Shown here one piece after another: positions 26,478 through 52,008 of a DNA stretch of 64,000 nucleotides. The stretch lies in the IMG/VR virus record IMGVR_UViG_3300042888_001941, positions 72,435 through 136,434 of that record. One strand, written 5' to 3'. The translations under genes and the position numbers were made by a program. Origin of the DNA: a virus. The first letter of the stretch is position 1, and every line of letters begins with the position of its first letter. The notes beneath the pieces are model-generated. The model did no database searches, was not told where the DNA came from, and saw only the letters and a program-made list of their open reading frames with translations.

Positions 26478-26984
26478 CTTTTCTTTTTTCTTCTTAGTCT
26501 TTTTCTTTTTGGTTGAAGCCTTCAGTAGCTTCTCTTCCCGTTGTGAATGATACGCATCTACAGCATTTGCGCTTGTTCGTGAGCGCCAGGTAAAGTCGCA
26601 AGCCTCGCATTGAACAAGACGCATGGTTGCCCAGCGTCCGCCATTAGGTGTGTTAACAACAAGTGTTTTAAGACGATTTGGTCGTGCGTTGCAATAAGGG
26701 CATTGCGGGAAACGTTGGCGACGTGATTCTTGTCCGTTCCAGGATACTGAAAGAGTACGACGAATCTCTCCTTCATCCTTTCCACCCCAGATACCCCAGA
26801 TTTGTTTGTGCTCAAGCGCCCACTTTAAGCAGTCTTTACGAACAGGACATACGAAGCACAAGTTCTTTGCTTGATACTTTTCTGCAGGCTCTGTTGAAAA
26901 GAAGAAATCTTTTACCTTGTCGTTCTCTGGCAGCGAGCATGTAGACTCTTTTTGCCAGTTAAGCTCTCCTGGATTTAAGCTCAT
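26469..26984 (-). CDS. whiB: WhiB-family transcription factor with C-terminal Zn ribbon and Lys-rich tail
   Basis: W...C...FF...AKNLCFVCPVRKDCLKWAL...GIWGG, then CPYC...CEAC. Confidence 0.9.
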   Translation of the reverse strand: MSLNPGELNWQKESTCSLPENDKVKDFFFSTEPAEKYQAKNLCFVCPVRKDCLKWALEHKQIWGIWGGKDEGEIRRTLSVSWNGQESRRQRFPQCPYCNARPNRLKTLVVNTPNGGRWATMRLVQCEACDFTWRSRTSANAVDAYHSQREEKLLKASTKKKKTKKKKEKLV

Positions 26985-27454: not shown

Positions 27455-27982
27455 CTACATATTGTTGTAGGTGCCTAACACAAGCTCGCCAGAATGATCT
27501 GGCCATAGGTACTGGTAATACGCAGGGCGAAAGCCTTTATCCTCTGGCCAGCCAAACTGTGAGTACCACTCGTAATCTTTGCGCAGTAGAGCAACGCGGT
27601 GAGTAGATGCGATCTGTTCGTACTTGTCCGTGTCCTTCAGCCAGTCTGGGAAGGTAAGCTCGTTGCTGATACGGTCAAGCTCAAGCGCGCGAGTAAGCGT
27701 GCCCTGGATCTTAGGAATCATAGTTGAGTTGTAACCGCGACGCAGCCACTCGTCACACATTGTAGTCGCATATAAGGCAAGACCTTTTTCATGGCCTTCC
27801 CACATCTTTGCTGCCGGATGATTGCGCCAGCCTTTAGGGTCACGATGTTCACCGCGAGGATCTAGTGACGTAAGTACAAGCATGAGTTGCCATGCCTCAA
27901 GTACCTGCTTGTTAAGGCGCTTGTTGTCGAGCTCCTGAGCAATATGCTCAAAGGAGTCAGTGTGAGGTAAGAATGTTTGCAT
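27455..27982 (-). CDS. Pyrimidine-dimer DNA glycosylase/endonuclease V-like protein (MSMEG_6728 family)
   Basis: MQTFLP...LDNKRLNKQVLE..Q...GWRNHPA.KMW.G...CDEW..RG...SH/THR..LLRKD..WY. Confidence 0.82.
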   Translation of the reverse strand: MQTFLPHTDSFEHIAQELDNKRLNKQVLEAWQLMLVLTSLDPRGEHRDPKGWRNHPAAKMWEGHEKGLALYATTMCDEWLRRGYNSTMIPKIQGTLTRALELDRISNELTFPDWLKDTDKYEQIASTHRVALLRKDYEWYSQFGWPEDKGFRPAYYQYLWPDHSGELVLGTYNNM

Positions 27983-28022: not shown

Positions 28023-28304
28023 TTAGCGCTCGTCGGGGTTTGATTCCTCGATTGACATATCCTCGTCTTCATTATCCCGCTCATATGGCTCTATAGGCAC
28101 GTATATGCCTACTACGGTAACTTTCCCGCAGGAAATACATTCACATACCGCGCCAGGGACTAGGTTAAGAGGAACGGTCACGCTTACCAACCGCGTGATG
28201 ATATTTCCATTTTCATCAACGCTATCTGGTTCCCACGTGCTATTCTCACGAATCCAGCACAACTCGCACTGAGGTGCTAGGTCTTCGTCGTAGTCTCGTA
28301 TCAT
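28023..28304 (-). CDS. Hypothetical Zn-finger protein
   Basis: CELC and CECISC, acidic tail, coupled to the MTase stop. Confidence 0.6.
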   Translation of the reverse strand: MIRDYDEDLAPQCELCWIRENSTWEPDSVDENGNIITRLVSVTVPLNLVPGAVCECISCGKVTVVGIYVPIEPYERDNEDEDMSIEESNPDER

Positions 28305-29563
28305 TACGCGCGTGCTTCCATAGGCTTAGAGTACCACTTCTTCTTTGCGGCGTGTCGAGAAAAGTCCTTATCACCGTTGATTAAGTACTCACGGTCACCA
28401 ATCTTTTCAGCATTGCCTTCTTGTGGATTTCCTTCTAGTGAATCCTTAATTGCCTTCGCAATAAAGTTTCCAGCCTGCACCGCGACTGCCTTGCCCCAGA
28501 CTGCAGGAAGTGCTGAGTAATCCTTAACGCTTTCAATATCCCAGTCATCGGGAAGTCCCTGCATGCGTGCAGCCTCGCGGTGAGTAATCAAGCGAGGTTC
28601 AGTTGGGTGAACAACGTGATCTAGTGCAGAGCCAGTAAGTACGTTGCACCAGTGATCTTCTTTCCAGCGATATGGTTGTGAAAACCCAAGCTTAAATTCT
28701 TTACGAATAACACGCGGAGAAATATCCATCCACTTTTGCGGGAACTCACCATTGTTCTTTTCAACGGCCTTCTTTAGCGCACCGCCAGTGTCGCCATTGC
28801 CTTCCCAGGCGTCATTTCCAATAATGCTAAAGATCTCTTCAATGCGTTGAGCATGAATATTAGTCTTGCCGATGTGACCGTTAACCATTCCATTTTTTGA
28901 GCGCAGGTGCTTATTCCACTTAGTTGCTGGAGCTGCGTACGGTTGGCTATTCCATGTCAAAGGAAGTTTAGCAAGATCTCCAATAACGTCCATAATGCGT
29001 GGAAGCTCTGTCGGCTCAATATGCGTAACATCAAACTTAATGCCACTGCGAACAGCAATCCAGAAGTAACGAGGACGATACGAGAATCCACCAACTTGTA
29101 AGTTATTGTGTTTCACGTGGTACAGGTCGTACTTCTTGCCAGACAATTCTTCTAGCATATTGCGGTACTTAACCATTACCTCACGCCCTTGCGTGTAAGC
29201 CTGCTGCACACTCTCGTAAACAACAAACTTAGGCGCAACCTTTGCAGCGTATCTAACAAATGCGCGTGTATGCTCGTGCGCCTTAGCGTCAGGACCGCGA
29301 TTAGCTTCACCAGACCACACTGACCAACCGGAGCAGGGAGGGCAACCCATAACAATGTCAGCCTTCATTACTGGCCATTCACTCGGGTCATCTGAGAACT
29401 GAGATACCCAGTTATTTCCTAGGTGATGACGGTTAGCCTCTGCAACTGGGTTACCAAAATCAAGTGTTCCAGTGCGCAGTTTCATTTCCATACCTTGTTG
29501 AATAAAACCAAGGCTCATGAAACCAGCAAGGCCGTTGCAGTCAATAAATTGTGGGTTAGACAT
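28304..29563 (-). CDS. Divergent C5-cytosine DNA methyltransferase-fold enzyme
   Basis: Motif IV GCPPCSGWS intact; motif I IDCNGLAGF; VI YESV; VIII SYRPR; IX REAARMQGLPD; X WGKAV. Confidence 0.82.
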   Translation of the reverse strand: MSNPQFIDCNGLAGFMSLGFIQQGMEMKLRTGTLDFGNPVAEANRHHLGNNWVSQFSDDPSEWPVMKADIVMGCPPCSGWSVWSGEANRGPDAKAHEHTRAFVRYAAKVAPKFVVYESVQQAYTQGREVMVKYRNMLEELSGKKYDLYHVKHNNLQVGGFSYRPRYFWIAVRSGIKFDVTHIEPTELPRIMDVIGDLAKLPLTWNSQPYAAPATKWNKHLRSKNGMVNGHIGKTNIHAQRIEEIFSIIGNDAWEGNGDTGGALKKAVEKNNGEFPQKWMDISPRVIRKEFKLGFSQPYRWKEDHWCNVLTGSALDHVVHPTEPRLITHREAARMQGLPDDWDIESVKDYSALPAVWGKAVAVQAGNFIAKAIKDSLEGNPQEGNAEKIGDREYLINGDKDFSRHAAKKKWYSKPMEARA

Positions 29564-29623
29564 GGGAATCCCTCCGTAATGTGTACGGAAGGACTGTATA
29601 CCGCATTCGCAGTAAATGTCCTG

Positions 29624-29917
29624 CTATTCCGCGGTGTTTTCTAGCAAACCTACCTCGTAGCCACAACCTGCGTATCCAGCAATATCAACCCAAGTGTCAG
29701 GCTGATACCCAGATTTTGACGCGTATCGCGCAACCTTCAACCCAACCATCATCATTGCAACATCTTCACGAGTGATAGGCACGCTGAGAATTATAGACCA
29801 GACCTTTGCTATACGTTCAAAGTTTTCTTCTGGTCCGCCGTACTGCGCATCTCTGTCACCAGTAATAATAGATGCCGCGGTGCGTAAAGCCTCTACTCTA
29901 GGAAGATTTTCGCTCAT
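29624..29917 (-). CDS. DUF6378-like small helical protein
   Basis: A..IITGDRDAQYGGPEENFERIA..W...DVAMMM..LKVAR...DTWVDIAGYA. Confidence 0.78.
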   Translation of the reverse strand: MSENLPRVEALRTAASIITGDRDAQYGGPEENFERIAKVWSIILSVPITREDVAMMMVGLKVARYASKSGYQPDTWVDIAGYAGCGYEVGLLENTAE

Positions 29918-30108
29918 TCTTGACCTACCTTTGTGCGAACAGTTACCCTAGCGTTTAGCAAAGCGTCAAGCTCAGTGATGTTCATTTCTGCTGATATAGG
30001 AAGAGTTGCCTCAGTGTCGTTTGCAAGTTTCTTCCACTTAAACTCCGCTTGCTCACGCAGTTCTTGAAAGTCATTCCCGCTAACTGTAAACTCAACCGTA
30101 GCTCTCAT
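29914..30108 (-). CDS. Hypothetical protein
   Basis: 64-aa ORF overlapping both neighbours. Confidence 0.55.
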   Translation of the reverse strand: MRATVEFTVSGNDFQELREQAEFKWKKLANDTEATLPISAEMNITELDALLNARVTVRTKVGQE

Positions 30109-30527
30109 TAGCGTATTCTTTTCTGCAGAAGATGCGGCGTGTAGTGCGCGCCATCAAGAACTGGCGTCTTATCGTCCATAGACTTAAAGATAATGTCGCC
30201 ATAACGAACTCCAACAACTTTTCCGCGGCGTCCGTTATGCATAGCACCAGTAGATCCGTCATACGCGTCAGCCTTAACGCGGACCTCATCGCCTACCAGT
30301 ATAGACCCTGGTTGCGCATCAACCCATAACTCGTCAGGCTTCTCAGGCACGATAGAGTGACCAAGAGCTAGCCTGCTGAACAGATCTATTACATCTTTAG
30401 TCTGATTGTCGGAAAGCTTCATGCCTCCCCATTCTTCAAGTAGTTTAAGGATAGCGTTACCTACGCCAACCTTAACCTTTGCTTCTTCCATTTGGGCTCT
30501 AACCCACTCAATGTTTACCTCAGGCAT
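30108..30527 (-). CDS. Hypothetical protein with C-terminal KOW/SH3-like domain
   Basis: ILVGDEVRVK...HNGRRGKVVGVRYG. Confidence 0.6.
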   Translation of the reverse strand: MPEVNIEWVRAQMEEAKVKVGVGNAILKLLEEWGGMKLSDNQTKDVIDLFSRLALGHSIVPEKPDELWVDAQPGSILVGDEVRVKADAYDGSTGAMHNGRRGKVVGVRYGDIIFKSMDDKTPVLDGAHYTPHLLQKRIR

Positions 30528-30528
30528 G

Positions 30529-31014
30529 TTAGTTGTCCCCTCCTATTTCGTCTGGTAAGCACTTTACACATATACCAAGATTTCTGCTGCGCCCAACGTC
30601 ATCAATTGCGCGCTTGCATAGTTCACATTTTACGCCTTCATCTTTAACTTTGTACCCATTAAGCTGGCGTTCCTTATTGCGTTCCATTTTTTCAATATAG
30701 AACTTATCCAGCATTTCGTCTGTTCCACCCGCCGCAACGATGATATTTGCAACAAAGTGAAGAACATCCACAGCTTCCTTAACAATTTCCTCGCGGTCCG
30801 CGTAAGGAGCATCGTGCTGCCAAGGCTTCCATGAGATAGCCTGGCGCATCTCTGCAAGTTCATCGTCAATGGCTAGCATGTTCCAGCGCATGTACTCAAT
30901 CAACTTGCGAATATTCTGTGGCTTATCGCCTGTCATCTCTTCGTAGTTAATGAAGTATACGTTTTCCTGTAGATCACGTGTGCGACGCAACCAGTTATTA
31001 AACAACATTCCCAT
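30529..31014 (-). CDS. All-alpha NTP pyrophosphatase (dimeric dUTPase / T4 gp56 dCTPase-like)
   Basis: DELAE...SWKPW...EAVDVLHF...K...N..RQ..GY, plus a C-terminal CxxC..CxxC. Confidence 0.8.
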   Translation of the reverse strand: MGMLFNNWLRRTRDLQENVYFINYEEMTGDKPQNIRKLIEYMRWNMLAIDDELAEMRQAISWKPWQHDAPYADREEIVKEAVDVLHFVANIIVAAGGTDEMLDKFYIEKMERNKERQLNGYKVKDEGVKCELCKRAIDDVGRSRNLGICVKCLPDEIGGDN

Positions 31015-31016
31015 CG

Positions 31017-32036
31017 TTATACCTTTCCACTGTATAGCTTTAATGATTCAGTCAATGTAATTGCTGCATCTCGTTTGGTTGGGATTGCGTTTAAGTACGC
31101 GCTCCTTTGATCTTTTGCTAGTTGCATTCTTTCTTCTTGCGACATATGCTCAATTGCAGATGCAAGCTGCATCCATGAACTTCCAATGAAGCCACTTTCA
31201 CGCCAGTCAGTAGCAACTGGAGTTAGAGCATTGAGACACTGAACTATGCGGTATGTCCACCATGTTCCGTTCTGGTGAGGGCTAATCAAAGCTCCTGTGC
31301 CACGAGCAATTTGATCTGCTACCTTATCGTCTGCCCAACCTTTATTCCACTTCATAGGAACTGTAGGATTGGCAAGCATGGCAATGGTTGATTTAGTCCA
31401 TGGAGAAGAAAAGTTTTCTACTACCCATTTATCAGTTCGTTCAGAGTCAGAAGGTTCTGGCTCTGTGATTAAGTACCTATCAAGGTTAATTCCTTTAAGA
31501 CTATTTCGCGCTGGTTCATGCAGTTGCTCTTGAATGTTTTCCTGCGCGGTCCACGGTAGCGTTGGGTACAACGTAGTAGCCCACTCGTTCGTAAGAAGCG
31601 CGTCTACAGTCTCTAGGAGACTCTTTAAGACATCAGGAGCGTTAGCTTGCGTATAACCTTTGCGATATGAGTAAAAAGGCTTCACAAGGTTGTCTGGGTT
31701 CTTTTTAATGGCGCGTAGACTAGACACGATGCGCGTAGGCTCTGGCGCGTCAATATAGAAAGATAGACGACTGTCACCGCGAAGTAAACCTATAACCTTA
31801 AGAGCTCCATAGGTTCTATTTGCACTAAGACTAGTGATAGGGCTTAATCCAACAAGAATTTTGTTAAAACTCTTTAGGTCATCAAGCGTCCAGGACATTT
31901 CAGGATCTGATTGAGTGACCTCGTGCCCTTGTTGAGTAAGCACGTGTACTAGCAAACTTGCAAACGATAACGTGCGTTTGTTTGCGTCTGCTGATACGTG
32001 TGGAGCAGACATGCCAGTTATAAGAATTTTGCTCAT
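31017..32036 (-). CDS. GT-B protein, paralogue of the upstream gene (T4 beta-glucosyltransferase-like)
   Basis: KILITGM...L...GHEV...F.KILVGLSPITSL...YGAL...FYID...GALISP...WW..R matches 32033..33244 motif for motif. Confidence 0.6.
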   Translation of the reverse strand: MSKILITGMSAPHVSADANKRTLSFASLLVHVLTQQGHEVTQSDPEMSWTLDDLKSFNKILVGLSPITSLSANRTYGALKVIGLLRGDSRLSFYIDAPEPTRIVSSLRAIKKNPDNLVKPFYSYRKGYTQANAPDVLKSLLETVDALLTNEWATTLYPTLPWTAQENIQEQLHEPARNSLKGINLDRYLITEPEPSDSERTDKWVVENFSSPWTKSTIAMLANPTVPMKWNKGWADDKVADQIARGTGALISPHQNGTWWTYRIVQCLNALTPVATDWRESGFIGSSWMQLASAIEHMSQEERMQLAKDQRSAYLNAIPTKRDAAITLTESLKLYSGKV

Positions 32037-33244
32037 GCACGAGTCCCATCTGCGTTTAACGCAATACCTTTGTCCTCACGAACGGCACGCTCAATGATGC
32101 GATTACAGTGCTCAACAAACGCTGAGTACTCAGGGATGTAAGGCTTAAGTGCTTCCTGTTGCGCAATTGCCGCCGCAGCTAATTCAGCATCACTCATCTT
32201 CTCAACATCAGCAATTGTAAGCTTATAGGCGTCACCTAATGGATCACCTTCGCCCTTATCAGTAACAAGAATAGACCCCACGTGCGCTGCGTATAGGAAA
32301 CGACTACGCCACCAGCCAGAACCAGCGTGTGGGTAAGGTGGTGAAAGAATACCCCAGTGATTATTGTAGAACTCAAGTACGTCCTGCTCTGTGTCAAAGC
32401 GTTGGCCGCCAAGCTTCTTAATAAGTTTACGACTGCCTACAATTTCAACGGGCCACTCTAATGATTTACGTTCTAGCCAATTATCGTGCGGCATGAGAGC
32501 GCCAAGTACCCATGCACGCTTTTTATCAGCCGCAGGTTTTGCAATCACGGGCTGTAACGTAGGAATGATAGTTGCTGTTGGGTCAAGAGCTTCAATAGGA
32601 CCTAATTCATCAGGCATACGCTTGCGAACAATTGACCTATCACCAAATCCATACATAGGGCATACTGGAACCATGCCAGCTTCCCATCGCTTATCTACAA
32701 GATCAGTTGCTGCTTGAACAAGACGCTTTTCCCATGGTTTAATGTTTTCATCGTTGTCCATCATGTAATAACGTTCGATGTAGCACTTTTTCGCCGCCGC
32801 AGGGTTAACCTCACGGATTCTTTCAAGTGCAGCTTCAATGTCTGCGCGACTAAAGTAAGTTGCGCCTTCTTCACCGCGATGTTCAGTTCCTACAAGCAGA
32901 TGCTTATACAACATCGCAGGTTTACGAATTAGCGCACGTGCTCCGTTGAATACAGTATTAAACTGCCAATCATCAAAGAAACCAACACAAGGAATGCCAG
33001 ATGACAAAGCGTAGAGTGCACCCATCGCACCTTGGCGACCATTTAATGAGTTAAGGGGTGCAAGATTGATCCACAGTACGTCATAAGATGACAGGTCTTC
33101 GCCAGGTGTAATCTTGCGCCAGTCAACATCGTGACCAGACTCACGCAATGCCCGAGCAATAGACGCAGGTACGTCAATCTTTTGAATAGTTCTTTTTTCT
33201 GTGTTTATCTGCAAAGCAGTAAACCCACTCATTAGAACTTTCAT
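32033..33244 (-). CDS. Putative DNA glycosyltransferase (T4 beta-glucosyltransferase-like GT-B)
   Basis: MKVLMSG...L.ESGHDVD...YDVLWINLAPLNSLNG...VGFFDDWQ resembles T4 BGT YDRLIVVNSSINFFGG...YLFTD (from memory). Located in a nucleotide-modification neighbourhood. Confidence 0.65.
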   Translation of the reverse strand: MKVLMSGFTALQINTEKRTIQKIDVPASIARALRESGHDVDWRKITPGEDLSSYDVLWINLAPLNSLNGRQGAMGALYALSSGIPCVGFFDDWQFNTVFNGARALIRKPAMLYKHLLVGTEHRGEEGATYFSRADIEAALERIREVNPAAAKKCYIERYYMMDNDENIKPWEKRLVQAATDLVDKRWEAGMVPVCPMYGFGDRSIVRKRMPDELGPIEALDPTATIIPTLQPVIAKPAADKKRAWVLGALMPHDNWLERKSLEWPVEIVGSRKLIKKLGGQRFDTEQDVLEFYNNHWGILSPPYPHAGSGWWRSRFLYAAHVGSILVTDKGEGDPLGDAYKLTIADVEKMSDAELAAAAIAQQEALKPYIPEYSAFVEHCNRIIERAVREDKGIALNADGTRA

Positions 33245-33277
33245 ACTACCTCCTTGTGGTTAAGTACATTTGGAACA

Positions 33278-33304
33278 CCGTCTGAACTTTACCAGGACAG
33301 ACGG
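33278..33304 (-). terminator. Hairpin after the SSB gene
   Basis: CCGTCTG...CAGACGG inverted repeat with a weak U tail. Confidence 0.45.
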
Positions 33305-33323
33305 CGAACCAGACGCACTTAAA

Positions 33324-33890
33324 TTAGAACGGTGCTGCCGGTGGAGCCGCTGCTACAGCAGGTGCTGCTTCAGGGGCTGGTGCGGGTACTGCCTCAGCAA
33401 CAGGTGCAGGTGCTGGAGCTGGTGCAGGTGCTGGTGCAGGTGCTGGTGCAGCAGCTGCAACTGGTGCACCTGGTGCAGGTATTGCAGATGTGTAGTAGTT
33501 CTTGATTTCGTTCTTCTTCTGACCCTGCCAGGTGCGAGAAGTAACAGCCGCACGGAATGCACGACCACGAATCGCTTGCTCAATCTGAGCGTTTGATGGG
33601 TTAGTTGCGAAGAACTCGCGACCAAGACCAAGTGCCATCATCTTACGGAAGAACATTCCGAGAGCTGCGTTGTTGTCTGGTGTAACTACGAGGTTGTCCC
33701 AGATAAGTCGCTTTGCGTGCGCGCCATTTTGAACCTGTGCCTTAATAGCGAACATTGTTTTGCCAGACTGTGAAGTCTTAGCAGTTGCTTCCACGATGAC
33801 TAAATCATAGTCACCGTCTGGAAGTGGATCGTAGCCAGTTGATACTTCACCAGCTTCTTTGACGAGATCTCCCCAATTGAGTGTACTCAT
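33324..33890 (-). CDS. DUF669-like ssDNA-binding protein
   Basis: YDPLPDGDY...SQSGKTM...IWDNL...WQG..KNEIK, PA-rich tail ending PF. Confidence 0.8.
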   Translation of the reverse strand: MSTLNWGDLVKEAGEVSTGYDPLPDGDYDLVIVEATAKTSQSGKTMFAIKAQVQNGAHAKRLIWDNLVVTPDNNAALGMFFRKMMALGLGREFFATNPSNAQIEQAIRGRAFRAAVTSRTWQGQKKNEIKNYYTSAIPAPGAPVAAAAPAPAPAPAPAPAPAPVAEAVPAPAPEAAPAVAAAPPAAPF

Positions 33891-33896
33891 AGCGGG

Positions 33897-34667
33897 TTAG
33901 TTTCCTTTCGTAGTTGGAGTTGCTTGTGCTTTTGGTCCGAAAATCATGTCGAGCATGCGTTCGATTCCAAGGTCTTGCTGTTCAACGATCTTTCCAAGTC
34001 GACCTTGTACTCGCTCGCCTGCTTCGTACTCGTCTGTACGTTCTACATACATACGTCTTGCCTTGAACGGTGGTTGCAGTGGATCTGGATTTGGATGTGT
34101 CTCCACTGTAATTGCGCCAAGAATGTCGTAGAAGTATGGTGCTTGAATTGCAAGCTGACCCTGTAGGTACGGACGTGAACGACCGTCTGCTCCAGGACGA
34201 GCCATAGCAGTTAGCACAACAGCTTCTAGAGGTTGTGTAGGGTGCATTGTAAGGTCACGTAGGTCACGCAATAGCGCACCCATATGACGAAGCAATTCGC
34301 CCCATTGTTGCATCTTCATTTGTTCAGTACCTGCAATTGAATCCATGCACTTCACTTGAAGTTCAGAGATAGAGTCAATGATGAGTGACTTGAACTGATG
34401 CTTTCCAGTTTGTAACCACTGGAATGTTTTAAGAACAACATCGTAGTCGCGAACGTTCACGACAACTGTGTCCCAGGTGCCATCGGCAACTGGAGGTTCT
34501 TCTCGAATTGGATCCCAATACTTTACGGTGATAGGTAGGAAACGATGCCCACCTTCAACGTCAAGCATGAGACGTGGATATGGTGCTGTCACCGCAAAGG
34601 TTGATTTTCCAACCTTTGACTCGCCATACACCATGATAGTGACCGAACGTTGTACTTCAGACATCAC
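33897..34667 (-). CDS. AAA_24/Sak4-like ATPase (recombinase)
   Basis: YGESKVGKST, LDVEGG, IIDSISE. Confidence 0.85.
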   Translation of the reverse strand: MMSEVQRSVTIMVYGESKVGKSTFAVTAPYPRLMLDVEGGHRFLPITVKYWDPIREEPPVADGTWDTVVVNVRDYDVVLKTFQWLQTGKHQFKSLIIDSISELQVKCMDSIAGTEQMKMQQWGELLRHMGALLRDLRDLTMHPTQPLEAVVLTAMARPGADGRSRPYLQGQLAIQAPYFYDILGAITVETHPNPDPLQPPFKARRMYVERTDEYEAGERVQGRLGKIVEQQDLGIERMLDMIFGPKAQATPTTKGN

Positions 34668-34706
34668 TGCTTCCTTTCATCTTTTTGTTTGTTTGCTTTT
34701 GTAACA

Positions 34707-35639
34707 TTATGCATTTCCTTTTTTCTCTTCCGTAGACTTGTAATAGTCGTACGGATCAGCGGACTGGAAGGCGTCTTCAATTGCAGCCTCAGCGGCAGAC
34801 CCATCATCAAACATAGGACAGATGCTGAAGAATGAGCATTTCCACTTGCAATCACGCGTTGCGTGTGGGTAGGCAATAAATCTATGATCTCCGCCTTCGT
34901 CAAGGTACTTGCGAGTATTCATCATGTCGGTAAGTACTCCGTGAATACGCTGCCAGAATGAGCGCAAGGCAAACACGTTGTGACGTACTTCCATCTGCTC
35001 ATAGAAGGGAGGACGCGCATTTGCAGAGCGCTTTACCTTCTTGAGCATAGTAAAGATTCCACCCTCAGAGCGTTCACCTTCTTTGTTCTGCGCTGTCTCG
35101 AGCATCATATAGGTAAGAATCTGTTCGTTCATGTGCGCCATAGACGCAAAGTCAGTAAACGAACCACCGACTGTCTTGAAGTCGCGGAACATACGCACAC
35201 CGTCAGCCTTACGACGAACACGCATATCAATCTTGCCTTGCAGAATAACACTGTCGTCCATAAGAGGCATTTCAATAATTTCTTCAGTAGAAATCATTTC
35301 TAATTCAGCATCAATGCCGTTCTCTTCAACCCACTGTATGTACCCATCAAGCATGATGCGCCCAAGTTCAGCCTCGGACTCAAGGTCATAGGTATCACGG
35401 TAGCTTTCAATAAGCTTTTGCTTATCAATTTCAACAAGTTGTGAGTGCGCCTCAAGCAAAGGTATGTTCTTTGAGTAGTACATATCTAGAGCTTCGTGAA
35501 CGCGTGAACCAAGCGCAAGTGCGCCTGTCATCTGTTGCGTCTTAGGTTGTAAGCGACGGTAATAACTCAACCACCATCTCCTACGACAATCTTTGAAGGT
35601 TTGGATCTCTGAGTTAGAGATTCGTATAGGTTGGGTCAT
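34707..35639 (-). CDS. Cas4-like PD-(D/E)xK exonuclease
   Basis: ISNSEIQTFKDCRRRW, G..VHEAL, GKID...DFKT, Q...Y, C.W.C.F..IC. Confidence 0.87.
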   Translation of the reverse strand: MTQPIRISNSEIQTFKDCRRRWWLSYYRRLQPKTQQMTGALALGSRVHEALDMYYSKNIPLLEAHSQLVEIDKQKLIESYRDTYDLESEAELGRIMLDGYIQWVEENGIDAELEMISTEEIIEMPLMDDSVILQGKIDMRVRRKADGVRMFRDFKTVGGSFTDFASMAHMNEQILTYMMLETAQNKEGERSEGGIFTMLKKVKRSANARPPFYEQMEVRHNVFALRSFWQRIHGVLTDMMNTRKYLDEGGDHRFIAYPHATRDCKWKCSFFSICPMFDDGSAAEAAIEDAFQSADPYDYYKSTEEKKGNA

Positions 35640-37441
35640 AGTTTTCCTGCCTTATCGTCCTTGAGTAGTGATAGAAGCTTTTCTTTATCGCGAACAATTT
35701 GTTCAAAGTTATCAGCCTTAGTTTCGAGAACCTGAATAACACGTTCCTCAATAGTTCCATCAGTTACATAGTCTGTAACGATAATTGAGTCGTGAATTTC
35801 AGATCCAATTCTATGAACACGGTCAAGTGCTTGGCGATGATCAACTAGTGACCAAGGACGCTGCAGCATGATAAGACGACGAGCTGCAGTCAGTGTAATG
35901 CCAACACCGCCAGCCTGTGCTGTAAATAGAATCCATTTAATCTTGCCAGATTGAAAGTCGTCAACCGCTTGTTGGCGCTCATCTTCATCCTGCATTCCAG
36001 TGATGAGACCGTGCTCAATCTTTTCCTTAGTAAGCTCAGCGCTTAGCAAGTAAATTAGTTGACGTGATACTGCGCAAACGGCAACGGAGTCATCACCAAA
36101 GTCTCCAGCCTTCATGTCGTCAATAACTGCATCTACCTTTGCAGATGGCGCAATAAGTGATGTTGTGATTTCGCCCGTCTCTTCATCTACAGCCATTTCA
36201 GCGTATGAACTAGCGAACTGCAGTAGTCGAATAGTCTGAGTTAGCGGACTTGGAGCTGTTATAGCGTCGCCGTCTTCTAACTCGGCAATCATAAGATCGC
36301 GCATCTGGTTGTAAGCCTTTTGCTGTTTAGTGCTCATCTCAACATCGCGACGTTCAAACATCATTTCTGGGAGCCAAGGAAGTACCTTTGCCTTTAGCAT
36401 ACGACGCATTCTTGGGTTAAGTCCTTGATAGAACTCTTGTTCCATATGAGGCTTGATGCCTAGAACCATCATGCCGCCAAAGGCATTCAGCATAGTGTTA
36501 ACCATGCGTTCAATCCAACGTGTCTTGCTTGGCCACTCTTCAGGGCTAATCCAGTGAAGGATTGCCCATAGGTCAAGCACATTGTTTGCAATAGGTGTAC
36601 CAGTTAGCGCGTAACGAATATCAGCATTTCCAGTTGCAGCCCATAGCGCACGTGTCTGCTTAGATTTTGGCTCCTTAGAGCGGTGAATTTCATCTGCAAT
36701 TACTGCCCTAAAGTCGATCTTGTTAAGTTCTCGTATGTGAACCTCGCAACGATTCTCTGTAACCTTCTCATCGTGGCCGCCGCAGTCCTTGCAACGAGCA
36801 AGCGCAACTGACCCATAGGACGCTAATCGTGAGTGAGTGCGCAGTGATTCCCAGTTGATAACATAGATATCTGCATCTTCCTCGAACTGTTTACGGCGTT
36901 GAGCAGTAGATCCTTTGATAACCACCACCTTGCGACCTGGCCACCATCTGTCAAACTCACGCTTCCAGTTTTTCTTTAATGTATTAGGGCACACAATAAG
37001 CGCTGGGAAGATTTCTTCACCGCCATCTTGTAACCATTTAAGCGCACGAATTGCTTGAGCTGTTTTACCTAAACCAGGTTCATCTGCAAGTAAAGCTCTA
37101 CGGGCTGTTGCTAGAAACTTGACGCCCGCGCGTTGATGAGGGAACAGGTCCTCGTTGCCCTCTTCCAGGGCCTCGAGTTCACGAAGTTCGTTCGCTGGGG
37201 TAATACGTGTCGCCAATTCATTGGCCGCCCAGGACCCTAATCTAGGTCCTATAGTAAGGTCAGTTTTGAAGGTAGAACGTAGCGCTAGGCATGTTGCCCA
37301 ACTTGTAGGCACGGACCACAACTGCGCACCTGGGTCCCATTTAGCTCCAGGTATAGATTTGCAAAGTTCCTTAAAGCGCCACTCTGCATTTATAACTATG
37401 CGCTTGTTTGATTCGTCAAGCTCTACGGCTACTGCCACCAA
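35636..37441 (-). CDS. SNF2-family DNA helicase
   Basis: LLADEPGLGKT, DEIH, LTGTP, QAGGVGITL, QALDRVHRIG. Confidence 0.92.
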   Translation of the reverse strand: MVAVAVELDESNKRIVINAEWRFKELCKSIPGAKWDPGAQLWSVPTSWATCLALRSTFKTDLTIGPRLGSWAANELATRITPANELRELEALEEGNEDLFPHQRAGVKFLATARRALLADEPGLGKTAQAIRALKWLQDGGEEIFPALIVCPNTLKKNWKREFDRWWPGRKVVVIKGSTAQRRKQFEEDADIYVINWESLRTHSRLASYGSVALARCKDCGGHDEKVTENRCEVHIRELNKIDFRAVIADEIHRSKEPKSKQTRALWAATGNADIRYALTGTPIANNVLDLWAILHWISPEEWPSKTRWIERMVNTMLNAFGGMMVLGIKPHMEQEFYQGLNPRMRRMLKAKVLPWLPEMMFERRDVEMSTKQQKAYNQMRDLMIAELEDGDAITAPSPLTQTIRLLQFASSYAEMAVDEETGEITTSLIAPSAKVDAVIDDMKAGDFGDDSVAVCAVSRQLIYLLSAELTKEKIEHGLITGMQDEDERQQAVDDFQSGKIKWILFTAQAGGVGITLTAARRLIMLQRPWSLVDHRQALDRVHRIGSEIHDSIIVTDYVTDGTIEERVIQVLETKADNFEQIVRDKEKLLSLLKDDKAGKL

Positions 37442-37466
37442 TCAATCCTTTCGTCGTTATGTATAC

Positions 37467-37483
37467 ATACTAACACGCTTTTA
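37467..37483 (-). promoter_or_regulatory. Promoter-like motif TAAAAGCGTGTTAGTAT
   Basis: Resembles the AAACG(C/T)G-N-TA(T/G)AAT family; sits upstream of the helicase gene. Confidence 0.5.
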
Positions 37484-37520
37484 CAAAAAAGAAACTACAT
37501 TTTGACCTAGTAAGTGGTTT

Positions 37521-37973
37521 TTATTGAAGTAGGCGTAATGGCTTCCAACCTACCTTTACACAGCGGAGTAGCCCATGGCGTATCGCATCAAGTGCGTGGC
37601 CTTCGCCACCACGGTGCCAATACTCTAGTTTCTTTAGTTTTGGATTATCAAACATTGCCTTAGCGTCTGCAGGAGATTGAAAGTAGATGTCATCTGCCTT
37701 TCTCCCTGCGTCCATAAGACACTGCTTGAGAATACCAATCTGCTCCAGTGAGTAAGGCGCCTGTGAGTTTTTTACCGTCTGCATGTTGATGGTAAATCTT
37801 TCACAGACAACCTCAGCCTCAGGATAAAGACTTAGTGTTTCACGAATAGGTTTGGCGTACTCGTCTTGCTGGTATTCTCCAGACCAAAGCATCACTGGCT
37901 CTTGCCCTTGCTCAAGCGAGAACAAAGCCATTCCTGTCGCCTTACCTGGGTCTACTGATAGTACGTATTTCAT
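37521..37973 (-). CDS. RuvC-like Holliday junction resolvase
   Basis: VLSVDPGKATG, VVCERF, HALDAIRH. Confidence 0.75.
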   Translation of the reverse strand: MKYVLSVDPGKATGMALFSLEQGQEPVMLWSGEYQQDEYAKPIRETLSLYPEAEVVCERFTINMQTVKNSQAPYSLEQIGILKQCLMDAGRKADDIYFQSPADAKAMFDNPKLKKLEYWHRGGEGHALDAIRHGLLRCVKVGWKPLRLLQ

Positions 37974-39796
37974 CGGTATTTTTCGCCCCAGTTCTCCATA
38001 GGTCCGTCGATTCCAGATGTAAGTGGGACTTCCCAGCCTTCTCTAGTAGTCATGCATTCTTGCACAACCTTCATAATCTCTTGCGCGTCCTTACGCGGAG
38101 CATTCAACACAATTTCGTCGTGTACAGGAACGATAAGAAGTTCGGTTAAATCTGCCTGGTCGAGTTTAATCAAATTAGACTTAAAGACTTCAGCCGCGCC
38201 TCCTTGAATTAAGTAATTCACAAGCGTGTAAGCTCTATCTTCATCGCAAGGAAGCCTACGGCCTGTCCATGTGTAGACGTATCCTTGTCCTTCTTGCCTA
38301 AAACGTCTAACGCCTGCGTCTTCAATTTGCTTTTGGAAGAACGCCATTCCAGGGAATCTCATATCAAACGCATCTGATACCGTGCGCATCTGAGGCTCAG
38401 CAACGCCTGCAGTTAACGCTTGCTTTGCAACGCCTGCGCCATAGAGTCGTCCGTAGACAGTTCCTTTAATAAGATTACGGCGCTTATCTGAGCGCTGCAT
38501 CGTTGGGTCATTGTAGATCTCGCGTCCAATCTCGGTAAACGGATCTGAGCCTGTAGCATCTGCGCGATTAAACAACGTGATGAGATTCTGGTCACCAGAC
38601 AGAGATGCGAACATACGGAACTCAACCTGGTCAAGGTCCGAGGTAATAATGACGTGGTCTTCATCCTTAGGTATAAACGCTGTGCGAACAGTGTCATCAC
38701 CCTTAGGCAGTGTCTGCAGCGCTGGGTTTTGTATAGACATACGTGACGTACGAGCGCCAAGAGTCTTGACAGATGGGTGAACAAACCCATTCACATTGTC
38801 GTTAATAAAGTTAGCAAAGTAGGTATTGGCAAGTTTATCTGCCTTACGCTGCTTAAGAACAACCTCGGCTAGAGCCTTTACCTCATCATTTCCTGTAATT
38901 GAAAGTAACTTAAGTTGATCCTTAGATGCAGACTTCTGTCCTGAAGGTGTAAATTCAAAGATCTCTCCGCCAAGAGATTCAAACAACCGCACCAATTGAA
39001 TGTTACTTGAGATTGATACGCCGTTATACTTTTCCTTTGCCCAGCCTTTAACAGACTCAGCATAGGCGGTTAGCTCATCAAACTTACGCTTAGAGTAATC
39101 TAGGTCAATACGAGCGCCATTGATTTCCATACGAGTAACAATGCGGCGTGCTGCCATTTCCAATTCATACGCCTTGTTGTACGGTCCTCCTGGGCCACAC
39201 TTTTCCCAGAACATTTCCCACAGACGCATTGTAAGAACGCAGTCGAGTGCGCCGTACGCCCAGTACGGTTGGAAGTTAGTAGGAACAGTTCCCCACGTCC
39301 AGCCATTTTCAATAAGTGAAATATCAAGTGATTCCTGCAATGCAACTGCACGACCATCAACGTGTAATGCAGCAAGACGTTTTAGCGCCCCAGACCCAAG
39401 CGGATCAATGATGTGCGCCATAATCATAGTGTCATGCGCACGGTGCCAAGGCAGTTTCCAATCTGACTGAATATCAAACCAGCGAGCTTCAAACGCAATG
39501 TTGTGGCAGACTATAGGTCCATCAAAGCGCTCCATTGCCTCATAGAACACGCCTTTCCACTGGTCCCATGGAATCGACCAACCTTGCTCTGCATCGCCCA
39601 CCTGGACCAAACGTAGGCGTCCATGCCATGGTGATAGCGCATGGTCACGTGGGTTACCAGGCAACTCACCAGTTTCAGTGTCGATTGCGATAGCGTTATG
39701 TGGACGGCGTTGGCCAATCCACTCAAGAAACGCTTGAGCTTTTTCAACGCTGTCAACAAGGTGAAGTTGAACGTCCTGCATGCCTTTAGTTGTCAT
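37970..39796 (-). CDS. polA: DNA polymerase, family A (3'-5' exonuclease plus polymerase)
   Basis: Exo DTET, HNIAFE, YGALD; motif A DLDQVEFR; motif B R..IKGTVYGRLYG; motif C VHDE. Confidence 0.95.
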   Translation of the reverse strand: MTTKGMQDVQLHLVDSVEKAQAFLEWIGQRRPHNAIAIDTETGELPGNPRDHALSPWHGRLRLVQVGDAEQGWSIPWDQWKGVFYEAMERFDGPIVCHNIAFEARWFDIQSDWKLPWHRAHDTMIMAHIIDPLGSGALKRLAALHVDGRAVALQESLDISLIENGWTWGTVPTNFQPYWAYGALDCVLTMRLWEMFWEKCGPGGPYNKAYELEMAARRIVTRMEINGARIDLDYSKRKFDELTAYAESVKGWAKEKYNGVSISSNIQLVRLFESLGGEIFEFTPSGQKSASKDQLKLLSITGNDEVKALAEVVLKQRKADKLANTYFANFINDNVNGFVHPSVKTLGARTSRMSIQNPALQTLPKGDDTVRTAFIPKDEDHVIITSDLDQVEFRMFASLSGDQNLITLFNRADATGSDPFTEIGREIYNDPTMQRSDKRRNLIKGTVYGRLYGAGVAKQALTAGVAEPQMRTVSDAFDMRFPGMAFFQKQIEDAGVRRFRQEGQGYVYTWTGRRLPCDEDRAYTLVNYLIQGGAAEVFKSNLIKLDQADLTELLIVPVHDEIVLNAPRKDAQEIMKVVQECMTTREGWEVPLTSGIDGPMENWGEKYR

Positions 39797-40265
39797 TCAA
39801 GTCCTTAAATATCGTTACATCAATTTCACATTTGGCGAAATACTCAACTGTGGCCTCTGGGTTTCTATGAGCTGCAATCGTGCTAACACGCATAACAACT
39901 TTAGATACTCCAGAGTTAGAAATCAGCTTTGCGCATTGAATGCACGCTGCGTCGGTAATATACACTGTCCCGCCCTCAACTCGTGAGCGATCTACGTAGA
40001 GAAGCGCATTTGCCTCTGCATGAATAGATGGGCAAGAATCGTAAACGTTATCCAGAGGAGTTTCACCGCGAGCACGAGCGCACCAGTTCATGCACTCGCC
40101 TTCCGCAGGAAACGTAGCAGCAGGACCGTTGTATCCCGTTGAGCTAATACGTTGATCCTTTGAGACTACAACCGCACCTATTTGAGCGCGGCTACAACGA
40201 GATCTAAGAGCTACTGTATCTGCGACAGTCATCCACACCTCGTCCCATGATGGACGATTACTCAT
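39786..40265 (-). CDS. dCMP deaminase
   Basis: RPSWDE...RSRC....GAV...GYNG...HAEANAL...CIQC. Confidence 0.92.
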   Translation of the reverse strand: MSNRPSWDEVWMTVADTVALRSRCSRAQIGAVVVSKDQRISSTGYNGPAATFPAEGECMNWCARARGETPLDNVYDSCPSIHAEANALLYVDRSRVEGGTVYITDAACIQCAKLISNSGVSKVVMRVSTIAAHRNPEATVEYFAKCEIDVTIFKDLNDN

Positions 40266-40440
40266 TCATACCTCGAAACAGCGAGTGCTTCATTGCCTCG
40301 GAGACAAGAAACATAGCTTCCCTACGAGAAAATCCAGCAGTCTTTAACTCTTCATACATAACGTGAAGAGTAATGGAAGCCTCACGTAAAGGAGAAAGAT
40401 AGAGTTCTTCTGCCTTTTCATGTTCTTCCTTACTTGCCAT
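40258..40440 (-). CDS. Small hypothetical protein
   Basis: ATG at 40440 after a GGAG RBS; LHVMYEELKTAGFSRREA. Confidence 0.6.
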   Translation of the reverse strand: MASKEEHEKAEELYLSPLREASITLHVMYEELKTAGFSRREAMFLVSEAMKHSLFRGMNE

Positions 40441-41302
40441 TTTCTTTCTCCTCGTTCTTTTCAATAGCACGAATCATTGCGTTTGCGTACCACTGCTCAA
40501 ACGGATGTAGATTAAAGAGTAGAGTCTTTTCCTGCTTGTGAATAGCAGCTGTAAGAGCTCCTTCAGCACGTCGTTGTACCTGTTCCCAGCTAAGTCCAGT
40601 AATAGGTGGAATGTCCTCATACGGCTCAGTTGTATGCTTTAGGTTTTCAGCCGCGTCGTAATGCTGTTCATAGATATGAAGAGATCCAACGTGATGAGCG
40701 TACGTGCCTGCTTGAATTCCTAGAACAGATGCCATAGCAATCTGAACACGCGTAAACTGGAAGAAGTCGTATGCAGCTCCTAGCCATACATCGTTTGAGC
40801 GCATGTAAACACTCATGTTAAGTTTATTGTCACGGATACGGAACTGATGCAAGATTGTACACGGGTAATCGCGCTTACTTGGCAAAAGATCAAGTACTGG
40901 ATCCCAGATGGTAACAACCGCTTGTCGTGTATCTGGGTCTGCTTTTAATCGCTCAATAACAGGACCGTACTGGTCAATAGTACGTGAACCGTACGCACCA
41001 TGGAATAGTCCATTGTCCTCTGCGTAGTTCTTAAACATTGGACCTACTGCCATAACAAGCTTAGGCGTTGTTGCGCCTGCAAGTAGCTGACATGCTTCAA
41101 CCGCACCAATACCAGGAACAGTTCCGCGGTTAACACCTAGTGGTAGTGTGTCATGCACATTCTCAATGCGAATTATTGCGTCCTCAATCTCACGGGTCTT
41201 CATACCGCGAGGAGCAGCCTCTTTACCGTGCTTAAGAACGTGCTGAACAAGGTCAACATAGCCGTTAACTCCGTCAGGAATGTTAATTATTGCAGTATCC
41301 AT
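40430..41302 (-). CDS. Thymidylate synthase homologue, predicted dCMP (hydroxy)methylase
   Basis: PRG..TRE, GAYG.R, DTRQA, catalytic PC (C148), MRSND..LG..YD with Asp179 where ThyA has Asn, SLHIY. Confidence 0.8.
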   Translation of the reverse strand: MDTAIINIPDGVNGYVDLVQHVLKHGKEAAPRGMKTREIEDAIIRIENVHDTLPLGVNRGTVPGIGAVEACQLLAGATTPKLVMAVGPMFKNYAEDNGLFHGAYGSRTIDQYGPVIERLKADPDTRQAVVTIWDPVLDLLPSKRDYPCTILHQFRIRDNKLNMSVYMRSNDVWLGAAYDFFQFTRVQIAMASVLGIQAGTYAHHVGSLHIYEQHYDAAENLKHTTEPYEDIPPITGLSWEQVQRRAEGALTAAIHKQEKTLLFNLHPFEQWYANAMIRAIEKNEEKENGK

Positions 41303-42309
41303 GGATCATCCTCTTTCAGTTTGTTATCGGCGCTTTGTTGTATTGCTTGTCCATACTCTAGACTGTTCTTGTAATTAAATCGTCGTACGTGTTGCGGGTG
41401 CGGCAGTACATCATACTCGCTTGCAGGAATTCCAGCCGCCATGATTCCTTTTTCGGCGTTTCGTCCTAAGGCAACAACACGTGGTGACCCAAGGTCTTCC
41501 CAGAGATCATACAGATCATCAATGTCAATATCTGCTACGTTAACAATTCCACACTTGGGCCATAGCTCTGTAGGAAGAGCGCTGAGTAGAAAATCACCGG
41601 AGTTATTATCAACAGGCATGAATGGAAGCTTAGTTTCCTCGCCGTACTCCTCAAGGATATTGCGCTTATCTCCAACAAGCAAAACCTTAGGTGTAGGGCT
41701 TCCAATATACGTAGGATACTTTGTAAGAATAGGTTGAACTAGCCCAGACATTGCCTCAGCAACGTCAACAATATGTTTGGCAAGCTCTGGAACACTATCA
41801 AGGCTGTCGGCTGGAGGAGTAAGACGCTCGGTTAAACTTACTGACACGGCTGACGCAATAGAGTAGTTCTCAAGGATTTCCTTAAGGTCACTTACCTTTA
41901 CGAACTCGTCACCGCGAGATTCTAGACGACGCTGAATAACATCAAGAGGTTGATACAACCAAAAGGAGGCAACTCCACGAGACATGAGAAAGAGTTCAAC
42001 CCAACGCCAACCAGCTTTACCTAGTAGACCAAAGCCGTCGGTGTTTGTGAGAGGACGGTACTTAGGAGCGTACGTTATTTCGCCCCAGTGCCAGCGGTCT
42101 GACAGACCATTGCAATCTTGTGAAAAGTTAATGTGCTCTACACTATTAACGTAATCCTTAAGGACCCAACGGCGTGTCTCTTCAAGCGGACGACCTTTGT
42201 GAAACTGCATGAAGTGCTTATCGGGGTGACGCCGTTTGATTTCATTGGCAACTGCCTCAATAAGCGAGGTTTTACCAGATGCGTCGGTTCCTTCTATAAC
42301 TATAAACAT
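41287..42309 (-). CDS. dNMP (thymidylate-like) kinase fused to a UDG-like domain
   Basis: IEGTDASGKT P-loop, DRWHWGE..Y, RLESRGD. C-terminal VLLVGD..N...PF...SG..L...N...VVALG..A...LPHPQ. Confidence 0.75.
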   Translation of the reverse strand: MFIVIEGTDASGKTSLIEAVANEIKRRHPDKHFMQFHKGRPLEETRRWVLKDYVNSVEHINFSQDCNGLSDRWHWGEITYAPKYRPLTNTDGFGLLGKAGWRWVELFLMSRGVASFWLYQPLDVIQRRLESRGDEFVKVSDLKEILENYSIASAVSVSLTERLTPPADSLDSVPELAKHIVDVAEAMSGLVQPILTKYPTYIGSPTPKVLLVGDKRNILEEYGEETKLPFMPVDNNSGDFLLSALPTELWPKCGIVNVADIDIDDLYDLWEDLGSPRVVALGRNAEKGIMAAGIPASEYDVLPHPQHVRRFNYKNSLEYGQAIQQSADNKLKEDDPWILQ

Positions 42310-52007: not shown

Positions 52008-52008
52008 G

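Follow-up and report, generated by a model that had tools for sequence, protein, structure and literature searches.

Does a compact run of replication and nucleotide genes allow an actinophage to replace the cytosine of its DNA by a glycosylated base, as coliphage T4 does? This question is raised by the minus-strand gene run at positions 28304–42309 of a 64,000-nucleotide stretch (hereafter the window), which forms the final 64 kb of the IMG/VR record IMGVR_UViG_3300042888_001941, a 136,434 bp freshwater (lake) actinophage genome. In T4, glucosylated 5-hydroxymethylcytosine (5hmC) is produced by a textbook pathway that comprises gp42, gp1, gp56, cd, and the alpha- and beta-glucosyltransferases. 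A first-pass annotation of the window, made from the letters alone, had proposed that a T4-like modified cytosine is formed and subsequently glycosylated. Our analysis backs this proposal, to which we assign a probability of about 0.7: the run would encode a T4-type pre-replicative replacement of cytosine followed by glycosylation of the DNA, whereby we infer all substrates and products, how much of the cytosine is replaced, which sugars are attached, and in what order the two glycosyltransferases act. Three independent computational lines lead to this reading, namely the published signature residues of hydroxymethylases in a thymidylate synthase (TS) homologue, structural models of two glycosyltransferases (GTs) with T4 beta-glucosyltransferase (BGT) as their best match, and the linkage of this GT family to TS homologues of the N177D type.

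The TS homologue is the only one encoded in the genome. No ThyX was found in the genome, and the phage lacks a TS or dihydrofolate reductase (DHFR) of its own. The best PDB sequence match of the homologue was the CMP hydroxymethylase MilA (E = 5.2e-23). The protein was aligned with E. coli ThyA, T4 gp42, and SPO1 gp29, and residues are given in ThyA numbering. At positions 143, 146, 147, 165, 168, 169, and 177, it carries DCTMNDD, with no difference from T4 gp42; the exchanges are L143D, H147T, Q165M, C168N, and N177D, with the catalytic C146 and D169 retained. Aspartate occupies the N177 position in T4 gp42 and MilA as well, while the dUMP hydroxymethylase SPO1 gp29 (32.5% overall identity to the homologue) has asparagine. 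According to the available portion of Lee et al. (NAR 2026, PMC13326640), N177D leads to dCMP specificity, L143D/E admits water so that a hydroxymethyl instead of a methyl product is formed, and D169N is the mark of 5-hydroxy-dCMP synthases, being present in all tested ones; these rules were derived from a limited set of tested enzymes. The window protein has neither the N177 of the SPO1 gp29 type nor the D169N of the RB69 gp48 type. Because N177D, the acidic residue 143, and the retained D169 fit the rules given in that portion of the paper, the TS homologue is predicted to be a 5-hydroxymethyl-dCMP (5hm-dCMP) synthase. The same seven-residue signature was found in phage DSL-LC01, Micrococcus phage Kurnik, a Manatee Spring siphovirus, and two Gordonia phages, Phendrix and Mareelih.

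For the two GTs of 403 and 339 amino acids, Pfam, NCBIfam, and PDB sequence searches gave nothing useful, and fold models were therefore needed. The AlphaFold2 models were confident, with pLDDT values of 95.2 for the 403-residue GT (131 sequences) and 93.4 for the 339-residue GT (82 sequences). The first-pass annotation had made its proposal depend on a match of these proteins to DNA glycosyltransferases. In Foldseek searches of the PDB, T4 BGT ranked first for both, as entry 1qkj for the longer (E = 3.6e-7) and 1j39 for the shorter protein (E = 2e-6), so that the proposal was not refuted on this ground. Both values lie inside the range of 1e-5 to 1e-7 that the available portion of a preprint reports for proven phage DNA GT-B enzymes against T4 BGT (bioRxiv 10.1101/2023.12.21.572611). 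Comparison with 48,161 chains by VIA-align again placed T4 BGT (1c3j) first, with Z 18.2, rmsd 3.6, and 291 aligned residues for the 403-residue GT (runner-up Z 16.5), and Z 16.8, rmsd 3.7, and 285 aligned residues for the 339-residue GT. T4 alpha-glucosyltransferase and the GT of phage HY126 were likewise among the structural matches. Both models reached Z values of at least 15 with many GT-B chains over 258–292 aligned residues, so that the GT-B fold covers their whole length.

The two GTs had been described as paralogous GT-B proteins at first reading, and the models, BLASTP (E = 2e-5), and hhalign (probability 100%, E = 1.5e-42) bear this out. A near-invariant aspartate, a candidate counterpart of the catalytic D100 of BGT, is located in the N-terminal domain (D92 in the longer and D96 in the shorter protein). 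Within the clade of close relatives, the 403-residue GT is 78–90% identical and the 339-residue GT only 43–62%; in the nearest relative, locus L008, the values are 98% and 78%. The conserved 403-residue GT most likely acts on the base and is proposed to transfer the first sugar to 5hmC in DNA, and a second or alternative sugar transfer is proposed for the fast-evolving 339-residue GT. No genes for UDP-galactopyranose mutase, a nucleotidyltransferase, or an epimerase were found in the genome; the lack of a detectable phage gene for nucleoside diphosphate (NDP)-sugar synthesis implies the use of host NDP-sugars, as in T4. In DSL-LC01, a UDP-galactopyranose mutase gene without counterpart in the window genome is inserted between the two GT paralogues (L001, 10031–11128).

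The GT family comprises 611 representatives (E ≤ 1e-3) in a library clustered at 50%. For its genomic surroundings, two IMG/VR scans supplied 41 distant loci that encode such a GT (39 and 2), and these loci were then searched by tblastn; a further single-protein scan for distant GT loci found none. Within the fetched stretch, a TS homologue was present in 37 of the 41 loci. All 37 carry Asp177, 34 with the exact T4-type signature and three with HCNSSDD, and not one of the 41 loci combines the GT family with an N177-type TS. Of the four loci without a TS homologue, two are contigs of only 6.0 and 6.9 kb, and the other two are stretches of 11.6–12.4 kb from window-type relatives; these stretches encode a methyltransferase (MTase) 59–69% identical to that of the window, and neither matched the kinase, TS, deaminase, or PolA. 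Three AT-rich loci were examined (L128, L099, and L110), and there the TS homologue is 53–60% identical to T4 gp42 and located 0.9–2.0 kb upstream of the GT. This closeness echoes the arrangement in T4, where gene 42 and beta-gt are adjacent according to the T4 annotation. In L101, L102, and L135, a GT closer to the 339-residue paralogue is found together with the HCNSSDD signature (His143, Asp177).

The remaining nucleotide enzymes of the run resemble the T4 set to different degrees. The annotated dNMP kinase was retained as a kinase, having a P-loop (GTDASGKT, residues 7–14) and a PHROG match. Its assignment to a T4-like set did not hold in one respect: the protein is not similar to T4 gp1 (BLASTP E = 1.1) and is instead Tmk/YorR-like. 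YorR (2axp) was the sole PDB sequence match (E = 1.5e-4), and TIGR00041 scored under its cut-off. A search of the genome for gp1-like proteins at E ≤ 1, run without a positive control, gave no match. The kinase gene overlaps the TS homologue gene by 16 nt, and a role as 5hm-dCMP kinase is proposed. The C-terminal part of about 190 residues (approximately 150–340) is without a family match; a hint of a uracil-DNA glycosylase in this half was dropped, as the best ESM Atlas score of 0.83 was below the meaningful level. The C-terminal half varies among relatives (kinase of 332 amino acids in DSL-LC01, 260 in Phendrix), and the identity of the kinase within the clade is just 51–61%. The dCMP deaminase has intact motifs (HAE at residue 82, CIQC of the CxxC type at 108–111). 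The all-alpha dNTP pyrophosphatase named in the first-pass annotation was confirmed by its Pfam match, the motifs WKPW and EAVDVLHF (ExxDxxHF), and homology to T4 gp56 (BLASTP E = 2e-11, 30% identity over 115 amino acids). It is proposed to be a dCTPase/dUTPase.

The proposed pathway would proceed as follows. The pyrophosphatase would convert dCTP and dUTP to the monophosphates, and the TS homologue would convert dCMP to 5hm-dCMP. The translationally coupled Tmk-like kinase would yield 5hm-dCDP, from which a host NDP kinase would form the triphosphate. The phage PolA would have to accept the modified dNTP and incorporate it, while the dCMP deaminase, like cd in T4, would supply the host thymidylate synthase with dUMP. 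After replication, the two BGT-fold paralogues would move sugars from host NDP-sugars to 5hmC, the 403-residue GT acting on the base and the 339-residue GT extending the sugar or serving other sites. The MTase-fold enzyme, whose cofactor pocket is altered, would be an addition that the pathway can do without.

Several observations weigh against this pathway. No cytosine-DNA-excluding functions (such as the T4 nucleases and Alc) were identified, and the dissimilarity of the kinase to gp1 was noted above. The PDB sequence matches of the pyrophosphatase were dimeric dUTPases (E = 7e-4). The GT family profile showed no significant homology to T4 BGT in hhalign (probability 18.9%, 51 columns), and the BGT score of the 339-residue GT is tied with those of other GT-B enzymes (next Z 16.0). 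The T4-style model also leaves unexplained why a C5-MTase-fold gene is present in most lineages. Finally, no 4-mer palindromes of the genome are depleted as strongly as GGCC and CCGG, with observed/expected ratios of 0.60 (186 vs. 310) and 0.55 (121 vs. 220), and this depletion may indicate that cytosines are not fully shielded; the first 50 kb of T4 show no depletion of either (1.13 and 1.12). Other palindromes are avoided too (ATTAAT 1 vs. 23.7 expected, TTTAAA 9 vs. 29, whole genome), and 24 of 80 fall at z < -3, with z inflated approximately 1.4-fold via double-strand counting. As a general proxy for modification, palindrome avoidance was discarded as non-discriminating, since the first 50 kb of T4 also avoid several palindromes; the contrast in GGCC and CCGG alone was retained, as a weak argument against complete shielding.

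The MTase-fold enzyme deserves separate consideration, as it bears on the alternative that survives best. Canonical C5-MTases have FxGxG as motif I and GN(A/S)V as motif X. The window protein matches PF00145 with 84.8 bits (cut-off 22), and the match begins only at profile position 36. In an alignment with M.HaeIII and 3g7u, motif IV (PPCS, within PPCSGWS), the glutamate of motif VI (as ESV), and the RxR of motif VIII (RPR) are present. The residues expected around the S-adenosylmethionine (SAM) pocket are absent: an N-terminal NGLAGF stands at the place of FxGxG, and motif X reads GKAV, with lysine where M.HaeIII has GNAV. Among the homologues listed, GKAV was found in 120 of 120 and PPCSGWS in 118 of 120; the orthologue of Gordonia phage Mareelih has GKGV. 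Among phages in GenBank, the family is confined to 15 records, all of them actinophages with the module, and each of the five records checked has a TS homologue.

A sister lineage (locus L137; record G001, 121 kb, approximately 90% complete) has the full module in the same order without the MTase gene. No DNA_methylase match was found anywhere in G001, whereas such a match is present in two further genomes of the clade, and in L137 (13138–14053) the DUF6378 gene is followed directly by a pyrimidine-dimer glycosylase gene. As the MTase is absent from a lineage that bears the module, it appears to be an accessory and not a step of the pathway; judged from these comparisons, it is a dispensable accessory with a non-canonical cofactor pocket. 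The first-pass annotation had reasoned that a C5-MTase implies partial substitution, an MTase acting on 5hmC, or a modified uracil in place of thymine. In this form the choice is not settled, given that the enzyme is dispensable and its cofactor pocket non-canonical. G001/L137 also lack the 93-residue open reading frame (ORF) that overlaps the MTase end in the window (28023–28304), and the two genes may constitute one cassette. In DSL-LC01, a gene for a 171-residue class I SAM-methyltransferase-like protein, without counterpart in the window genome, lies just ahead of the MTase gene (L001, 13515–14027).

The enzyme could nevertheless be an ordinary SAM-dependent C5-MTase that guards residual cytosines at one motif, with cytosine replacement being partial. 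We regard this as possible, if doubtful. The Pfam score above the cut-off and the presence of the catalytic cysteine, the ENV-type glutamate, and RxR speak in its favor, and the avoidance of GGCC and CCGG hints at incomplete protection of cytosine. Motif I and the invariant lysine of motif X argue against it, as does the restriction of the GenBank phage family to genomes with the hydroxymethylase module, which would be odd for a generic protective methylase.

A more tentative idea, which we consider unlikely, is that the lysine-type enzyme is not a methyltransferase. A SAM analogue might serve as donor of an anionic group that the enzyme places on residual cytosines; alternatively, the enzyme might attack 5hmC at C6 and exchange the hydroxyl. 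By either route, actinophage DNA would acquire a second, so far undescribed cytosine derivative beside glycosyl-5hmC. This idea is based on its occurrence in GenBank phages only beside gp42-type modules, the retained residues of covalent catalysis, the loss of the canonical SAM loop, and the invariant lysine, which sits where engineered and natural carboxymethyltransferases have lysine or arginine. Identity with one of these, CmoX of Synechococcus phage S-B43, was considered and rejected. According to the available portion of its description, CmoX is a DNA cytosine C5-carboxymethyltransferase that needs CmoA (Nat Commun 2025, PMC12783734). The two enzymes share the C5-MTase fold and a basic residue in place of the motif X asparagine (HhaI N304), but CmoX has arginine, SPPC, and a phage CmoA, as described there, whereas the window enzyme has lysine and CPPC. 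No CmoA (TIGR00740) match was detected in the genome at E ≤ 0.1 in a search whose positive control was detected, and the CmoX structure 8YF3 was not among the PDB sequence matches of the window enzyme at E ≤ 0.01.

Turning to the glycosyltransferases, the GT-B pair may act on virion proteins or the host envelope instead of DNA, so that the phage DNA would contain bare 5hmC or nothing unusual. A shared fold is no proof of function, and the scores of T4 BGT are approached to within 1–2 Z by GT-B enzymes with widely differing specificities. Actinophages are known to glycosylate virion proteins. The window itself contains, on the plus strand at 24574–26477, a tetratricopeptide repeat (TPR) protein gene and a GT2-like glycosyltransferase gene (PF13704, E = 3.7e-6), which close the structural block beside the fibre genes. 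They form a separate, probably protein-directed glycosylation system, and protein glycosylation therefore probably occurs in this phage. The GT-B pair, on the other hand, lies inside the replication/nucleotide module and outside the structural module. Its family accompanies N177D-type TS homologues in most of the unrelated loci described above, at a short distance from gp42 orthologues in the three AT-rich ones. We consider a non-DNA target of the GT-B pair very unlikely.

The first-pass annotation had also suggested that the deaminase diverts 5hm-dCMP to 5hm-dUMP, whereby a glycosylated 5-hydroxymethyluracil (base-J-like) would replace thymine and the MTase would modify ordinary cytosine. The position of the deaminase gene, which follows the TS homologue 165 bases further downstream in one run of overlapping genes, is compatible with this route; in 32 of the 41 distant loci, a deaminase homologue likewise adjoins a gp42-type gene, and the C5-MTase would gain a substrate. 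T4, however, makes hmC DNA while carrying a dCMP deaminase, and according to its annotation this is the same enzyme, so that the gene is not diagnostic. Moreover, neither a function that excludes dTTP nor a further pyrophosphatase was found, host dTTP would compete in a phage without its own TS, and a dispensable MTase need not be accommodated. Diversion to thymine replacement is disfavored and unnecessary, and scarcely probable in our estimate.

Little credence is likewise given to another C5 product of the TS homologue, such as the 5-methyl-dCMP of Xp12 or the 5-hydroxy-dCMP of RB69: the limited enzyme set behind the residue rules and the occurrence of UDP-galactopyranose mutase both between the GTs of DSL-LC01 and in the 5-hydroxycytosine phage RL38JI would leave room for it, but D169 is kept here whereas the tested 5-hydroxy-dCMP synthases are all D169N, and residue 143 is aspartate, as opposed to the bulky hydrophobic residue of methyl-forming enzymes (available portion of PMC13326640).

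The T4-style reading can be placed among known systems as follows. The likeness to T4 lies in the seven gp42 residues, the gp56 homologue, the dCMP deaminase, and the two GT-B enzymes with BGT as best structural match. The window phage differs from T4 in its Tmk/YorR-like kinase in place of gp1, in GTs that form a separate sequence family (hhalign 19% to BGT) and are paralogous to each other, in a polymerase of family A instead of B, in its actinobacterial host and siphovirus-type tail, in lacking TS and DHFR, and in the attached C5-MTase-fold gene. The pathway of SPO1, which leads to 5-hydroxymethyluracil, involves the same set of deaminase, kinase, and pyrophosphatase; gp29 keeps N177 for dUMP, while the window protein has aspartate. 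RB69, DLP3, and RL38JI, whose DNA contains glycosylated 5-hydroxycytosine, share N177D, the acidic residue 143, several GT-B enzymes, and a Tmk/YorR-like "nucleotide kinase" gene adjoining the TS homologue gene, as far as described in the available portion of PMC13326640. The UDP-galactopyranose mutase of RL38JI is matched in the relative DSL-LC01, whereas no sugar-nucleotide synthesis genes were found in the window genome. The D169N of these systems, against D169 here, suggests a hydroxymethyl and not a hydroxyl product.

The metavirome clusters of the bioRxiv preprint, in its available portion, resemble the window module in having GT-B DNA glycosyltransferases with the Foldseek E-values to T4 BGT quoted above, and their contigs are linked to ThyS more often than to 5mYOX. 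In the MT-5mYOX-GT clusters of the same source, C5-MTases occur with TET-like oxygenases in a post-replicative route; in the window, the MTase accompanies a pre-replicative ThyS route. A Tet_JBP (PF12851) match was not found in the genome in a search that had no working positive control. A 2-oxoglutarate-Fe(II) oxygenase gene at 43948–44547 matches PF13640 instead (E = 1.9e-17; phrog_61). Together with its upstream neighbor, labeled "ferrochelatase" in PHROG, it forms a pair (43370–44547, minus strand) 1–2 kb upstream of the kinase gene on the same strand.

The module is conserved among close relatives. Searches of IMG/VR yielded 114 clade relatives of the GT, of which 80 were retained, and 25 loci of at least 12 kb were compared for synteny. 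As far as the contigs reach, the module is syntenic in 25 of 25, the 64-residue ORF excepted. The 139-residue and DUF6378 genes are kept across the clade, including the lineage without MTase; the best ESM Atlas score of the 139-residue protein was 0.80, below the meaningful level (0.9). The 70-residue ORF is 36–52% identical in related loci and 100% in L008. In GenBank, the module recurs in the actinophages DSL-LC01, Gordonia Forza, GodonK, and GMA2, and Micrococcus phage Kurnik; the latter has the module and the MTase family, but GTs of another type.

We found no recognition of this module in actinophages in the literature, although the family might be among the contigs listed with the 2023 GT preprint and with the CmoX paper. 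In their available portions, the papers on DSL-LC01 and GMA2 treat module genes as generic auxiliary metabolic genes or methylases (PMC10611076, PMC4524720). ThyS-linked GT-B clusters in metaviromes have already been reported (bioRxiv 10.1101/2023.12.21.572611, available portion). Like the pathway logic, these clusters were known before. If the chemistry holds, glycosyl-5hmC DNA would not be confined to T-even myoviruses, which infect Proteobacteria, but would also occur in actinobacterial siphoviruses of the PolA type, including an abundant freshwater clade, considering the 114 IMG/VR relatives of the GT alone. Cultivable teaching-collection phages (Gordonia Forza, GodonK, and GMA2; Micrococcus Kurnik) carry the module under names such as "thymidylate synthase" and "methyltransferase", which makes the proposal cheap to test. 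If true, it would also matter when these phages are cloned, mapped with restriction enzymes, or basecalled from nanopore reads. The 611-representative GT-B family, owing to its near-exclusive linkage to N177D-type TS homologues, could serve as a marker for pre-replicative cytosine hypermodification. In addition, attention is drawn to a family of methyltransferase fold whose cofactor pocket is remodelled.

The composition of the gene run is summarized in Table 1. Based on the ORF list and on Pfam, PHROG, and NCBIfam scans, it is a single, tightly packed run of 17 genes, with 13 of 17 junctions overlapping or at most 6 bases apart. All genes named for this run in the first-pass annotation were recovered at their positions in the ORF list and by Pfam and PHROG. 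The five genes of the recombination/replication block and the ORFs of 70, 139, and 64 residues are additions to that annotation.

Table 1. Features of the minus-strand gene run, in window coordinates and listed in the direction of transcription
Feature	Position	Strand	Evidence
P-loop nucleotide kinase, Tmk/YorR-like N-terminal half	41287–42309	-	phrog_761 "thymidylate kinase", E = 2.8e-13
TS homologue, predicted dCMP hydroxymethylase	40430–41302	-	Thymidylat_synt PF00303, E = 5.5e-29
Conserved 70-residue ORF between TS homologue and deaminase	40258–40470	-	No Pfam or PHROG match
dCMP deaminase (role of T4 cd)	39786–40265	-	PF00383, E = 1.6e-18
Family A DNA polymerase with 3'-5' exonuclease domain	37970–39796	-	DNA_pol_A PF00476, E = 2.3e-52; PF01612, E = 9.5e-5
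Recombination/replication block	33324–37973	-	Pfam; phrog_1981; annotated syntenic genes of DSL-LC01
RuvC-like	37521–37973	-	Within recombination/replication block
SNF2 helicase	35636–37441	-	Within recombination/replication block
PD-(D/E)XK nuclease	34707–35639	-	Within recombination/replication block
AAA_24 ATPase	33897–34667	-	Within recombination/replication block
DUF669	33324–33890	-	Within recombination/replication block
GT-B glycosyltransferase, 403 amino acids	32033–33244	-	Predicted fold; no Pfam match
GT-B glycosyltransferase, 339 amino acids	31017–32036	-	Predicted fold; no Pfam match
All-alpha dNTP pyrophosphatase (dUTPase_2/MazG-like)	30529–31014	-	PF08761, E = 4.3e-11; phrog_18650
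Conserved gene, 139 amino acids	30108–30527	-	No family match (Pfam, PHROG, NCBIfam)
ORF, 64 amino acids	29914–30108	-	No family match (Pfam, PHROG, NCBIfam)
DUF6378 gene	29624–29917	-	PF19905, E = 4.9e-30
C5-cytosine-methyltransferase-fold enzyme	28304–29563	-	DNA_methylase PF00145, E = 1e-23

The assignment to an actinobacterial siphovirus, also made at first reading, is supported by a WhiB gene (26469–26984), a siphovirus-type SPP1_Dit domain (50370–52064), and the nearest GenBank relatives, all of which are actinophages. No match of near-identical DNA was found among GenBank phages. The record has a CheckV completeness of 100% and a GC content of 47.8%. Bases 1–30 of the genome are repeated at 136281–136310, 155 bases before the end; the genome thus looks terminally redundant or circular, while its IMG/VR class is linear. 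The MTase gene is followed by a pyrimidine-dimer DNA glycosylase gene (27455–27982; PF03013, E = 3e-20) and the WhiB gene. The order MTase, pyrimidine-dimer glycosylase, WhiB is also found in DSL-LC01 and, for WhiB, in Gordonia phages.

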